In this document: positions 5,317-31,891 of the stretch, in pieces
Layout of the letters: each line of letters starts with the position of its first letter
Position numbering within the stretch: position 1 is the first letter of the stretch
Virus record (IMG/VR): IMGVR_UViG_3300028563_000011
Span: 46,592-110,591 of that record
From: a virus
Reading direction: 5' to 3' (one strand)
Length of the DNA stretch: 64,000 nt
Made by a program: the position numbers and the translations under genes
Notes under the pieces: generated by a model
Databases searched by the model: none
Told to the model about the DNA's origin: nothing
What the model saw: only the letters and a program-made list of their open reading frames with translations

Positions 5317-5853
5317 TTAGACTCCCCAATCTTTTGCCTTCGATTGTAAGAATGTATTTAATTTGTCCATTTGATCTTTAGATAAATGCTTGGGAAGCTC
5401 ATCCAAGAACTTCTTACCATCAGCATCCGACTTGAAATTAAGTTTGGGTACTGCTTTAGTTAAAGCATTATATATTTTACCACCAGAATAAATCCCAACT
5501 CCTGCAGCTGTTAAGGCTGCACCTATTGGGTTAAGAACACCAGCAGACATTAACCAATATGCCACTGTACCCCCTAGCAAAGAACCACCCTTAACCGCTA
5601 ATATAGCAGCAACAGTTTTTCTAAAAAGACCTGCTCCAGACCCCTTCTCTTCCTCAACCTTTGGTTTTTCCTTATCTTTTGAATCGGAAGAACTTCCGCC
5701 AGAACCTGAAGTAAATTCCCCAGTCTTAGGATCATGATTAGGGTTACCTTGATCTTCTTTAGCTAAAGATTCAATACCCATCTTGATCTTAAGAATACGA
5801 TCACTGAGCTTAGAAACTCTTGAGCGGTCCCGCAAAGACAGCATCAACGTCAC
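5317..5853 (-). CDS. Putative internal head protein with NPNHD tag and Gly-rich hydrophobic hairpin
   Basis: Leader + LAKEDQGNPNHDPKTGEFTSG + two Gly/Ala-rich hydrophobic helices. N-terminal part is paralogous to 4783..5307. Confidence 0.6.
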   Translation of the reverse strand: MTLMLSLRDRSRVSKLSDRILKIKMGIESLAKEDQGNPNHDPKTGEFTSGSGGSSSDSKDKEKPKVEEEKGSGAGLFRKTVAAILAVKGGSLLGGTVAYWLMSAGVLNPIGAALTAAGVGIYSGGKIYNALTKAVPKLNFKSDADGKKFLDELPKHLSKDQMDKLNTFLQSKAKDWGV

Positions 5854-18108: not shown

Positions 18109-18184
18109 TGGTGCGCGCCGTCAGACTCGAACTGACACTGAAAGGATTTTAAGTCCCATCCCTCTGCCTTTGGGGTACGCGCGC
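18109..18184 (-). tRNA. tRNA-Leu(TAA), short variable loop, CCA encoded
   Basis: Reverse complement GCGCGCGTACCCCAAAGGCAGAGGGATGGGACTTAAAATCCTTTCAGTGTCAGTTCGAGTCTGACGGCGCGCACCA folds as a cloverleaf with anticodon TAA. Confidence 0.85.
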
Positions 18185-27066: not shown

Positions 27067-28881
27067 TCACTTATCCGGGTGTTTAGAATCATACACCTCC
27101 CCGTCCTTGAAGACTTTAGGACCCATTCCAAGCATGAACGTAGGTTGGACTACCGGCCAGTAATTCATAACAATTGAATCTGCCAGGTTAGGTGATACCG
27201 TACCATCTGGTGATTTGTCAACTAAAAGTTTTAACCTAGAGTTCTTAGACGCAGTAGCTTGTGACAACTCTTTCTCAATCTTACGTAAAAGAGGTAGCTT
27301 AGAGTCAAGTGAGATTAACGTGTCTGGATCGTGTTTAACACCTTGTGTAACAACTTGATATGTACGAAGGAAACGGTTGCGCAATTCCCACCAAGCTTGT
27401 GCTTTTAGGTTGGCATAGAAATCTTTGTTCTTAGGTGAGTCTAGGTCACCTTCATTGACTCTTGCATTAGGGTATAACACAGATGAACCAGCATTCCATG
27501 CAATAAACTGTAATCCTTTTGGTATAATTAGCTTACCTTCACTATCTTTTTCTTCCATTAAGCGATTTGTCTCAGCTTTAACAGCGGCACCAACTCCAAT
27601 ACAATCGTACTGAAGGGATAAGGCTCCTAAACCTAAGACAGCTGCTACAGCACGTCTAGCTGTTACGCCGGGGTCTCTAGCACCCCACTCTTCCGCAAAG
27701 CGTAGGACTACCCCCTGGCGCTTAGATAGGGCATTACGGTCACCACCTTCATCAGCTACGTCTAAAGCTGCACCCCAGGGCCCACCTTCGTGCCAACCTT
27801 CAAGAGAAGTTACATTGGCATGTAAGTGAGCGTCAATTGACGCTTTCACCCACTCATTAGGTATAATGACACCAGCTAATGCTGCAGTATAGTTACGATC
27901 TACTTCTTGAGCTAAAAGATGTAGTGTACCTTTGTCTTCTGCGTTTCTTCTACGTTCAGCGTACCACTCTTCTGTTTTATCAGGGTGATCCCTCCAATCC
28001 ATAACAAGAACACGTGTTTTGCCTCTCGGTATTACAGCACCAGGGTACCAATCAATACCACCCTCACGAGTTCTATGGAATAAGTTACCAGGCCCATTAA
28101 CAGAAGACATATCAATTGGGACACGAGTAGTATCCCCTAAAGACGCTTCAATCAACTCTGGATGCTCGTAATGGCTACTCTCATCTTTCATGTAGAGAAG
28201 TGTGCGCCCACCTCTACCAATATTATCCCCAATTTCTCCTTTTATAACTGATCCGTTTGAAGGGTTAATACAACGCATAAAGGTAAGATGATCACGCGGT
28301 TCTAATCCTTGAGGTAAAAACACTTCTGGTAAACCGCGAATCATCATCCTAATCTTTTCAAAGATTGAGTCGGGATCACCCAGCTTATCCACTTTTGGTT
28401 GGGTAGCTGAGCCCCAACCAATTTGAGAGCTAGGCCAAAATAACCAAAGCCAAACTGAGAAAGCAACTCCAATCCAAGTTGCTCCCATATCTCTCGACTT
28501 TTCAATTAAGCCCGGTTGCTCATCTTTCAAACAAGAAAGAAGGAACTGTAACATTTCTACTTGCTTAGGAAACATAATAAATGGAAATCGAGTAAGCTTA
28601 CCTTCTTTACCAACATTACGTGGCTCATATAAATCAACCCAATGATTAATCCACTCTAATGAGTGTTCCTTGTAGTAAGCTTTAGCTGATTCGATAAGTT
28701 CAGGTCTAAACTCAAACTTATCCAACTGGTTTTTACGCCAAACTAAAACGCTGTCGTAATTAGGCGGCCAGTTTTCTCTTGAACAAGGCTGTGGTGGTTT
28801 AAGTTTAGTCGCACTTGCTCTTAACAGACGTTCAACACGTACTGTACGTAAAGCCTCAGATACGTCTATTAAGCCAGACAC
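27067..28881 (-). CDS. terL: Terminase large subunit
   Basis: Walker A EKSRDMGATW, Walker B MKDESSH, coupling motif SSVNG, nuclease LDVADEGGD, and SPNLADS. Confidence 0.93.
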   Translation of the reverse strand: MSGLIDVSEALRTVRVERLLRASATKLKPPQPCSRENWPPNYDSVLVWRKNQLDKFEFRPELIESAKAYYKEHSLEWINHWVDLYEPRNVGKEGKLTRFPFIMFPKQVEMLQFLLSCLKDEQPGLIEKSRDMGATWIGVAFSVWLWLFWPSSQIGWGSATQPKVDKLGDPDSIFEKIRMMIRGLPEVFLPQGLEPRDHLTFMRCINPSNGSVIKGEIGDNIGRGGRTLLYMKDESSHYEHPELIEASLGDTTRVPIDMSSVNGPGNLFHRTREGGIDWYPGAVIPRGKTRVLVMDWRDHPDKTEEWYAERRRNAEDKGTLHLLAQEVDRNYTAALAGVIIPNEWVKASIDAHLHANVTSLEGWHEGGPWGAALDVADEGGDRNALSKRQGVVLRFAEEWGARDPGVTARRAVAAVLGLGALSLQYDCIGVGAAVKAETNRLMEEKDSEGKLIIPKGLQFIAWNAGSSVLYPNARVNEGDLDSPKNKDFYANLKAQAWWELRNRFLRTYQVVTQGVKHDPDTLISLDSKLPLLRKIEKELSQATASKNSRLKLLVDKSPDGTVSPNLADSIVMNYWPVVQPTFMLGMGPKVFKDGEVYDSKHPDK

Positions 28882-29438
28882 GAGTACCTACCTTTGATCA
28901 ACTTAAGTTGTTTTTGTAGTCTTTTAATAGTGCTTGTACGTACTGTAGCTAATGAATCATAATACCCTACATCCCTTGGCTTACCGTAATGACGAGCACC
29001 ACTAACCCGGTCTCCAGATATTGTCTCTGCTTTAGGGTAAAGACGTTTGAGTTGTCTAGCTATATCTCGAACACTACTAGAGCCAAGACCCAAAGGTTTA
29101 TCAAAAGCTGATACTGCACTTTCATTTTCTGGACTAGACTCAATACTCAAATCCTTACCTACCCATTCTACGTACAAATGCTTAGGATCTGCAACATTCA
29201 AAACAACTGAACCAACCCTTTGGTTAAATACATCCCTAATATGATAATGATCGTATTGTTCTCCTGGCTGTACAATTTCTTTATGACTAAATACAAGGTA
29301 AGGTTTAGAACCAGAAGAGGACCACTTCCCAGATTTATCTCTAGGCTCTTCCGGGTTGAAAGCTTTGTTCATTCCCTGCTGGACCTTTACCAGGTCCAGT
29401 TGAAGGTTCATGATCTGTAGTTGTGTTTGAAGGCCCAC
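28869..29438 (-). CDS. Tagged putative internal head protein (cargo possibly GNAT-like)
   Basis: Leader + MNKAFNPEEPRDKSGKW tag, nearly identical to the portal tag. Confidence 0.6.
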   Translation of the reverse strand: MGLQTQLQIMNLQLDLVKVQQGMNKAFNPEEPRDKSGKWSSSGSKPYLVFSHKEIVQPGEQYDHYHIRDVFNQRVGSVVLNVADPKHLYVEWVGKDLSIESSPENESAVSAFDKPLGLGSSSVRDIARQLKRLYPKAETISGDRVSGARHYGKPRDVGYYDSLATVRTSTIKRLQKQLKLIKGRYSCLA

Positions 29439-30524: not shown

Positions 30525-30601
30525 TGGTGCTGCTAGATAGATTCGAACTACCAACCGACTGCTTACAAGGCAGCTGCTCTACCAATTGGAGCTATAGCAG
30601 C
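30525..30601 (-). tRNA. tRNA-Thr(TGT), CCA encoded
   Basis: Reverse complement GCTGCTATAGCTCCAATTGGTAGAGCAGCTGCCTTGTAAGCAGTCGGTTGGTAGTTCGAATCTATCTAGCAGCACCA. Confidence 0.92.
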
Positions 30602-30612
30602 AAAGAGTGTAA

Positions 30613-30710
30613 GACTGATAAAGCCTGCCTCGACAGCTTTTTGATCGAAGTGGCTAGATAAACTGTTTGACCGCGAGCGAGGACGGTCCAGGCCACTTAC
30701 TTTATCAGTC
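30613..30710 (-). ncRNA. Putative structured RNA, copy 1 (unknown family)
   Basis: 11-bp closing stem GACTGATAAAG/CTTTATCAGTC; inner stems AAGTGGC/GCCACTT and GACCG/CGGTC with loop TCCTCGCTCG; covaries with copy 2. Confidence 0.65.
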
Positions 30711-30763
30711 CAACCTCACTTCATCCAAAGGCGTACACCTTACTGTGGATGAAGCGAAGGATA

Positions 30764-31204
30764 CTACTTCTCAAAGACTTTGGGTACGTGACCTTCACGT
30801 ATCTTAGCCTTTATCTGTGATGCTAGACGCGTAGCAAGTTGCACATCATAATCTGGCCTACTCGCCCAGTACTGCATCTTATCACTTGCATGAGCAAGCT
30901 CAGTATGAGCACGTTTAGCCTTTGCAGGGTCTTCAGCTGTCTTTGCTAAGTGACTCAAGTATACATACGCTGCAAAGTGCTTAGCCCAATTTGCAGTTGG
31001 GTTAGGTTGCCTGCCTGACCAAGGGACTTTCTTACCACCCCCATACATCTGCTTATCAGAATAAACAATCCCCATACCAGGAGAAGAACTAAATCGACCA
31101 AATTTGTCATGATAAGGATCAGCTTTAGCCAAACAACCAAACAATGCTACTGACTCTCGTAAAGAGTCAATTCTCTGGGCTAGGACTTGAGTTGTATTCA
31201 CCAT
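30764..31204 (-). CDS. Tagged putative internal head protein
   Basis: Leader QRIDSLRE...LAKA + DPYHDKFGRFSS tag + helical cargo domain. Confidence 0.6.
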   Translation of the reverse strand: MVNTTQVLAQRIDSLRESVALFGCLAKADPYHDKFGRFSSSPGMGIVYSDKQMYGGGKKVPWSGRQPNPTANWAKHFAAYVYLSHLAKTAEDPAKAKRAHTELAHASDKMQYWASRPDYDVQLATRLASQIKAKIREGHVPKVFEK

Positions 31205-31219
31205 CCTTAGTCCTTTAGG

Positions 31220-31405
31220 GAGTTAGAGGAAGACTAACAGCTGGCCCCGACCAGTTATGCCAAGTGTCAAGCTATATTCTTCAGGCCTTTCGGTGTTCCC
31301 AGTATACGTACCAAGATTGTACATAGTAACCGAGCCGGTTATCTCCCAAAGCCAACAGCGAGCGAGGACTGTCCAAGACACTTACTTTTAGTCTTCCCCT
31401 AACTC
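31220..31405 (-). ncRNA. Putative structured RNA, copy 2 (unknown family)
   Basis: 18-bp closing stem overlapping the terS 3' end; AAGTGTC/GACACTT; GACAG/CTGTT with the identical loop TCCTCGCTCG. G-U pairs indicate the minus strand. Confidence 0.65.
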
Positions 31406-31891
31406 TTCTACATACGCCGCTGCATCAATATCAAGTTCATTAACATGTCCATTTGTATACCCACTAGACTCACCTGATGCAATCTTACCCAGTGCCTTCT
31501 CCATAGTCAATAACTCAGTCTCTGACAAACCCTTCAAAGCCTCAGGAGGTAATGCTAGAACCTGCACTGTACCTTTAAGAGTAGTAGCTGTAAGCTTTGG
31601 TGTGAAACAATTAAGCAATCTATCAGCAGCCCACTTCTTATCATCCCAAGAAACAGGATACTCCCATTTATTTCTACCACTACCACCAGTAGCCCTATTT
31701 GCTCTAAGCACCATCAACATAAAATCCAGTGGCATAATACCACCATTTGCTATATGTGCCTCTGCTGCTTTTTCTCGTAATTGCACAGGCATTTTGTTCT
31801 TAGCACCCTGTGGCCTACCCTGTGTATGATTACCACCATTAAAATGACGATTATCAACAGTACCCTCTTTCGTGATACGTACACGCTTCAT
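31388..31891 (-). CDS. terS: Terminase small subunit
   Basis: GRPQGAKNK...PLDFMLMVLR...AA...PKL pattern typical of TerS; upstream of terL. Confidence 0.7.
   Translation of the reverse strand: MKRVRITKEGTVDNRHFNGGNHTQGRPQGAKNKMPVQLREKAAEAHIANGGIMPLDFMLMVLRANRATGGSGRNKWEYPVSWDDKKWAADRLLNCFTPKLTATTLKGTVQVLALPPEALKGLSETELLTMEKALGKIASGESSGYTNGHVNELDIDAAAYVEELGED

Follow-up and report, generated by a model that had tools for sequence, protein, structure and literature searches.

The minus strand of the window (the 64,000-nucleotide stretch of an IMG/VR virus record analysed here) carries two copies of a structured RNA, at 30612-30711 and 31220-31405, which share one architecture and are members of a conserved, uncatalogued family of RNAs about 82 nt long (no match in Rfam 15). 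The same RNA is found in about 14 other IMG/VR phage contigs, one copy each (some of these contigs being duplicates or close kin), so that chance can be ruled out, and it is kept almost unchanged by phages with mostly unrelated terminases, at the entry to the packaging genes. The novelty pertains to the RNA family, and the claim of newness does not cover its mechanism. An unrecognised structured RNA had been proposed in the initial annotation of this DNA, and the lack of an Rfam match, the covarying homologs in unrelated phages and the strand-specific G-U pairs all support the view that the RNA in the window is such an element and probably a functional one. Among the functions considered below we favour, with a probability of about 0.3, that of a self-contained module which is transcribed with the operon and processes its transcript, a new class of small self-cleaving ribozyme being the likeliest form.

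Two copies of the RNA in a single phage genome

Copy 1 (30612-30711, minus strand) has the canonical form, with z = -5.0 against shuffled sequences and a score of 82-89 bits with the two covariance models built in this work (R1 and R2). A closing helix of 12 bp (helix A, 30700-30711 with 30612-30623) encloses a 7-bp helix B (30692-30698 with 30648-30654), which leads to the 6-bp hairpin P3 (30683-30688 with 30669-30674, loop 30675-30682). The 3' strand of P3 is followed by a variable bulge of 11 nt (30658-30668) and then by a conserved CUA (30655-30657), and a purine-rich junction strand (30637-30647) separates helix B from the 4-bp hairpin D (30633-30636 with 30625-30628), the loop of which is CGAG (30629-30632). 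Copy 2 (31220-31405, minus strand) is a variant of this form, with z = -3.6 against shuffles; models from which it was left out score it at 29-31 bits (E about 2e-4 to 7e-4). Its helix A consists of 17 bp (31389-31405 with 31220-31236) plus three of four further pairs, its helix B again of 7 bp (31377-31383 with 31262-31268), its hairpin P3 of 6 bp (31368-31373 with 31354-31359, loop 31360-31367) and its hairpin D of 5 bp (31250-31254 with 31241-31245, loop CGGG, 31246-31249). An insert of 85 nt (31269-31353) stands where other members have a bulge of 10-11 nt, and CUU replaces the conserved CUA. The P3 loop has the same sequence in both copies, and a 12-mer common to them occurs exactly twice both in the window and in the full 110.6-kb virus record.

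Both copies thus lie on the minus strand and fold as the initial annotation had described, and the compensatory differences that it pointed out between them are real: a G-C pair is replaced by U-A in the 7-bp helix (its P2, our helix B) and a C-G pair by A-U in hairpin P3. The length of the insert in copy 2 stood up as well, but the hairpins attributed to it are less certain, as the 85 nt taken alone have no significant fold (z = -1.0).

The copies flank an orphan ORF of 146 aa (30764-31204, minus strand), the cargo gene of the initial annotation, which belongs to no Pfam or PHROG family and which, in a search of 5.8 billion clustered proteins, matched nothing but itself. Between its stop codon and copy 1 lies a strong 14-bp hairpin without a U tract (30714-30760, minus strand), and a tRNA-Thr (UGU; 30525-30601, minus strand) is located 10 nt downstream of copy 1 (the gap had been given as 11 nt). 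Two further tRNAs of the window, a tRNA-Leu (UAA; 18109-18184) and a tRNA-Met (CAU; 60770-60843, minus strand), have no copy of the RNA near them. On its other side copy 2 overlaps the end of an ORF of 167 aa (31388-31891, minus strand), the last codons and stop codon of which (31388-31390) form the 5' strand of helix A. This overlap had been noted before, with the ORF named as terS; the overlap holds, while the leads for terS are faint. The protein matches only PHROGs of unknown function and has one homolog at 57%, and it may be the small terminase subunit, the leads to DUF5681 and small terminases in the Atlas being weak (TM about 0.3). The gene for the large terminase subunit (TerL; 27067-28881, minus strand; phrog_2 at 8e-14) begins 1.7 kb downstream of copy 1, and its product is about 50% identical to TerL proteins of Rhizobium phages. 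An ORF of 189 aa overlapping the start of the TerL gene (28869-29438, minus strand) is not recognisable as a small terminase; an Atlas structure search with it gave weak neighbours resembling GNAT acetyltransferases (TM 0.40-0.48).

Distribution of the RNA family

Homologs were searched for with DNA patterns and with the covariance models R1 and R2. A pattern derived from both window copies led to two unrelated IMG/VR contigs, and model R1, built without copy 2, still recognised copy 2. The patterns were then relaxed stepwise in the 5' part, the loop and the 3' hairpin, each step bringing further members, until a final pattern with a relaxed P3 stem gave no further ones. A covariance-model search for relatives and an Rfam scan had both been suggested in the initial annotation; the former, together with the DNA patterns, yielded the 14 or so other phage contigs, with strong covariation, and the latter gave no match in Rfam 15 for the window copies or nine homologs, whether the cut-off was the gathering threshold or E = 10, tRNAs and noise being all that came back. 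The core of the RNA is 68-91% identical to copy 1 across members, and only the window phage carries two copies.

The carriers are soil and rhizosphere phages. The window phage itself originates from rhizosphere metagenomes, where contigs from further sequencing runs represent the same phage and hold no variants; the runs listed for it include none of RNA. Searches of cultured phages returned chance matches only. Among metagenome contigs, strict GTAAGTG patterns, which cover only a minority subtype, returned in the matches listed one of the contigs already known (G001) and chance hits in coding DNA, and the same patterns, with the same restriction to the minority subtype, gave only chance hits among the matches listed from 185,579 species genomes. 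A pattern for the main, GC-rich subtype had no match in 401 genomes sampled from one phylum. A set of 80 IMG/VR loci encoding a TerL 51-60% identical to that of the window has no copy within 6 kb, and no homologs of the window ORFs that surround the RNA.

Two other kinds of sequence were seen in contigs outside the family. The minus strand of an Acetatifactor MAG contig (L233), around 5393-5480 of its reverse complement, has three units of ~20 nt with GTCCTCGCTCGC, set apart by spacers of about 11-17 nt, apparently a short repeat array with no relation to the RNA family. A soil metagenome contig (L215) and an Alphaproteobacteria MAG (L227) have in common a different, conserved intergenic stretch, GTAAGTGG..TGTCCTCGCTCGC with about 60 nt around it, which misfits the model beyond the hairpin.

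A three-way junction supported by covariation

The family fold is a three-way junction of helix A, a long arm and hairpin D. The long arm comprises the 7-bp helix B, a conserved internal loop, the variable bulge and the 6-bp hairpin P3, and the loop of hairpin D is either CGAG or CGGG. Across an alignment of 13 sequences, standard pairs fill 96.7% of the cells, compared with about 40% when the partners are slid against each other, and compensatory changes occur in 13 of 28 pairs (6/7 in helix A, 3/7 in helix B, 3/6 in P3 and 1/4 in hairpin D). Covariation scores 0.375, where shuffles score 0.19 and the slid controls 0.07-0.13, and in none of 500 shuffles are the fraction paired, the numbers of compensatory changes or the covariation score as high. 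This 13-sequence alignment (A4) was made with the model and is biased toward the model structure, but an independently aligned set (A3) shows the same picture. A hand-checked alignment of nine sequences has 97.6% standard pairs and 11 compensatory pairs, and in an extra member outside the main set two more pairs of helix B are flipped. Many sequences have G-U at several pairs, and the fold is therefore that of the sense-strand RNA rather than of the DNA or of the opposite strand.

The 31 invariant columns are concentrated in loops and junction strands. They include UCCUCG, the first six bases of the P3 loop (the second half of which varies as Y-U-Y-G), the U-G pair that closes P3, the CUA directly ahead of the 3' strand of helix B in the 13-sequence alignment, and, in the same alignment, positions 1, 2 and 4 of the four-base D loop. 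Of the AA in the junction strand, the second A is invariant and the first is A in 12 of 13 sequences. On either side of the internal loop, three bases may lengthen helix B through C-A or U-A, U-U or G-U, and G-C pairs. The bulge site, by comparison with this fixed core, accommodates anything from 10 to 85 nt.

In all 13 sequences the D loop is complementary over 4-5 nt to the CUCG or CCUCG of the P3 loop, as the initial annotation had seen in the window copies when it suggested a kissing loop. The complementarity thus extends to every member, but support from covariation does not: both partners are invariant, and the only substitution, of A by G, lies opposite U and is neutral. The one sequence that departs from this rule is that of G011, where, compared with its near-twin G012, the one change inside the element turns CGAG into CGAU, so that one pair is broken without compensation; a single further base differs in the flanks. 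A loop-loop contact, within one molecule or between molecules, is plausible from the sequences, and it is unproven because both sides are invariant and the CGAU variant breaks a pair. A second CUCG in the P3 loop, considered as a further docking site, was ruled out, its position being variable.

Genomic context

The RNA is always in the sense orientation relative to neighbouring ORFs, and occupies a short gap between them or runs over the end of one. In 10 of 14 phages (the window phage, G001, G002, G003, G004, G008, G010, G013, G014 and G015) it is found 0.2-3.6 kb upstream of the TerL gene on the same strand. It lies a few kb downstream of the TerL and portal genes in G007 and probably in G012, and 29 kb from TerL on the opposite strand in G005, while no TerL was found in G006. 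It should be kept in mind that the family counts about 14 contigs, a small size that limits such context statistics, and that ORFs in the GC-rich contigs are our own simple calls. The TerL proteins of the carriers are mostly unrelated (more than 40% identity in only one pair), one of them resembling TerLs of Burkholderia phages, and some carriers encode TerS as well as TerL. Methyltransferases, an HNH nuclease and small membrane proteins are encoded by accessory genes between the RNA and TerL, and a dNTPase-like gene is likewise among the accessory neighbours of the RNA.

The general association of the RNA is thus with the terminase and packaging module, and only in the window phage does it adjoin a tRNA and a cargo gene. 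Both of the latter had been put forward in the initial annotation and both hold there, but no tRNA lies near any other member, which rules out a tRNA association as a general feature, and every other phage has a single copy, so that no gene is flanked in the same manner elsewhere. The flanking ORFs of different members have no homology to one another, and a conserved partner protein can for this reason be ruled out too. A scan for sigma-70-like promoters found none beside the RNA in three phages, and no consistent terminator or promoter of its own accompanies the RNA across members. In four cases (copy 1, G001, G002 and G015) a strong hairpin immediately precedes the RNA on its 5' side. An ORF starts 15-60 nt downstream of the RNA in several members, but the distance to the next start varies widely.

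Some of the sequences following the RNA deserve mention in their own right. In G001 (L364:3402-3602, minus strand) and G004 (about L367:7380-7450, minus strand), the first ORF after the RNA encodes a short, strongly hydrophobic peptide, and in G005 the ORF in this position begins with a lipoprotein-like signal; these three may be small membrane proteins heading the packaging module. Just downstream of the copy in G002, two hairpins with T-arm-like loops (GGTTCAATTCC and GGTTCAAATCC) are found within 70 nt (L005:2836-2905). ARAGORN predicts no tRNA there, and the hairpins may be degenerate tRNAs or tRNA-like fragments.

Possible functions of the RNA

Small RNAs this conserved and covarying have time and again proved to be ribozymes, riboswitches, or devices that bind RNA polymerase or the ribosome. 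In the present case the nearly fixed sequence, the absence of a partner protein, the sporadic occurrence in unrelated phages, the tolerance of insertions and the sense orientation within operons together point to a function residing in the RNA itself or directed at a universal host machine. That the core stays 68-91% identical while occurrence is sporadic and the TerL proteins are mostly unrelated argues more specifically for a self-contained function. In our ranking, which is a matter of inference, transcript processing comes first; action on RNA polymerase and a role as a trans-acting RNA follow side by side, then a cis-regulatory sensor and last a DNA signal, and the remainder of the probability goes to something not yet conceived.

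If the RNA is a processing module, it would cut the polycistronic late transcript. The upstream mRNA would then end after a protective hairpin, and the downstream part would start with a compact, nuclease-resistant fold ahead of the packaging genes or, in the window phage, of the orphan gene and the tRNA-Thr precursor. The two copies in the window phage would excise the inserted gene as a separate RNA unit. The folded core would be made of the P3 loop, which is like loop L3 of the HDV ribozyme, the junction strand C-G-N-A-A and the D loop. A length of about 80 nt and invariant columns placed in loops and junction strands are traits typical of small ribozymes, and we count in favour of processing the bracketing of a gene by two copies, the hairpins on the 5' side and the identity of the P3 loop with L3. 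Against it, the conserved unpaired bases would fit the binding of a protein, of RNA polymerase or of a ligand equally well, and the upstream hairpins are found in only some members. Moreover, helix A pairs sequence 5' of the core with the 3' end, so that in the window copies a cut product would stay held by 12-21 bp. The HDV and hatchet ribozymes are 5'-cutting types, and differ from the RNA in this joining of 5' sequence to the 3' end.

It is possible, if unlikely, that the RNA instead acts in cis as a nascent transcript on host RNA polymerase, in the manner of the put RNAs of phage HK022, rendering the enzyme resistant to pausing and termination to allow read-through of the long packaging and structural operon. 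Its place at the head of the late module in the 10 phages listed above would suit such an antiterminator, as would its near-invariance across hosts, in line with a target that is universal, for instance the RNA exit channel; HK022, too, has two copies that covary in its genome. Yet no promoter was detected just upstream by the sigma-70-like scan of three phages, no recognisable terminators follow the RNA, and its location is different in G007, probably G012, and G005. The spacing in the window phage, where copy 1 starts only 700 nt after copy 2, also argues against it.

Just as doubtful is a trans-acting small RNA freed from the operon transcript, which could form dimers or rings by means of its complementary loops and work, like a pRNA, alongside the packaging machinery, or serve as a decoy or inhibitor of a conserved host defence or enzyme. 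The three-way junction with its terminal helix and with complementary loops in every member would be in keeping with this, and so would the proximity to terminase genes and to accessory ones (those for methyltransferases, an HNH nuclease, the dNTPase-like protein and the tRNA); cleavage of the tRNA by RNase P would presumably free the 3' side of copy 1. On the other hand, neither a promoter nor a terminator of its own was found, the loops do not covary and one variant breaks their pairing. The RNA is also nearly invariant among phages with unrelated TerL and portal proteins, a behaviour contrary to that of phi29-type pRNAs and one that argues against binding to phage-specific proteins.

A cis-regulatory sensor controlling translation or stability of the next gene, whether a riboswitch-like aptamer or a site for a host protein or the ribosome, seems improbable. 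The closing helix, junction and conserved unpaired bases form an aptamer-like pattern, the ORF starts 15-60 nt downstream in several members are suitably placed, and the D loop resembles a Shine-Dalgarno sequence and the P3 loop an anti-Shine-Dalgarno sequence. This is countered by the lack of an expression platform, no consistent terminator or helix sequestering a ribosome binding site being found downstream, by the widely varying distance to the next start, by downstream genes that are unrelated to one another and by copy 1, which precedes a tRNA rather than an ORF. Finally, a DNA-level signal (a pac or cos site, an origin or a recombination site) would explain the closeness to terminase genes but is very improbable, since the helices are preserved through compensatory changes and through numerous G-U pairs, which the opposite strand would show as A-C mismatches, and since unrelated terminases would not have a common DNA recognition sequence.

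Should the RNA be self-cleaving, as we favour, it would add a class of ribozymes and a phage means of insulating inserted genes and tRNAs. Action on RNA polymerase or on the packaging motor would make it just the second case of a rare mechanism. With a size of about 82 nt, the RNA lends itself to being studied directly by biochemical and structural means.

Comparison with known RNAs

The put RNAs of HK022 come in two covarying copies per genome, act without a phage protein and are two simple stem-loops located directly after early promoters. The RNA described here is likewise short and structured, with two covarying copies in the window phage, and its placement ahead of long operons would fit, the comparison being one of position. 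It differs from put in being a three-way junction that belongs to a late module and has no promoter found nearby.

With phi29 pRNA it shares a three-way junction, a helix joining the 5' and 3' ends, two arms with loops complementary over about 4 nt, and a link to DNA packaging, by genomic position in one case and by function in the other. The sequences of phi29-type pRNAs diverge fast among related phages while their loops covary, and phi29-like phages are without TerS; our RNA, in contrast, is nearly fixed in sequence across unrelated phages, its loops do not vary, and its carriers use TerS/TerL. The Rfam pRNA model does not match the window copies or nine homologs.

Parallels also exist with HDV-like ribozymes. 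Theta ribozymes of gut phages have the standard HDV-like fold, with the cleavage site beside tRNAs (PMC10879173). Like these ribozymes, the RNA is small, phage-borne and sense within transcripts, and can adjoin a tRNA. The cleavage site of theta ribozymes is reportedly at the 3' end of the tRNA, however, whereas copy 1 is located 5' of its tRNA. The sequence of the HDV genomic ribozyme, including loop L3, has been printed (PMC6018904), and the P3 loop of the RNA starts with eight of the eight bases of this catalytic loop, its U...CC...G core included, the first six of which are invariant in all members. The hairpin bearing that loop is flanked by the 7-bp helix B, comparable to the 7-bp P1 of HDV, and the junction strand C-G-N-A-A recalls J4/2.

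The defining features of HDV nevertheless fail. The helices backed by covariation (A, B, P3 and D) are nested, while HDV folds into a nested double pseudoknot, its P3 being followed at once by the 3' strand of P1 and the 5' strand of its P2 being set between P1 and P3. In the RNA the 10-11 nt behind P3 vary and, on inspection of the flanks and the alignment, have no consistent upstream complementarity, and the first pair of helix B is G-C in seven sequences and A-U in six, where P1 of HDV is closed by G-U at the cleavage site. Downstream of hairpin D no nucleotide is left unpaired before helix A, as the single base there forms, in all 13 sequences, the innermost pair of that helix. The strand that in HDV joins P4 to P2 and bears the catalytic C is thus absent, and a conserved C is located elsewhere, directly after helix B. 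An HDV-like refolding in which the variable segment would supply the 3' strand of P1 was rejected, as partial complementarity exists in only four members and no room is left for P4 or J4/2. The Rfam models of HDV and other ribozymes do not match the window copies or nine homologs up to E = 10. The RNA is therefore not a member of the HDV family. A more specific form of the ribozyme reading, quite unlikely but suggested by the loop, is a new self-cleaving class in which the HDV catalytic loop would work in a nested topology, helix A standing in for P2 and a loop-loop helix for P1.1, with a packaging-motor partner that assembles through loop-loop contacts in terminase-type phages as a rarer alternative. 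A relation to HDV by such rewiring is speculation; self-cleavage by the RNA would raise the question of an HDV-type loop working in another topology.
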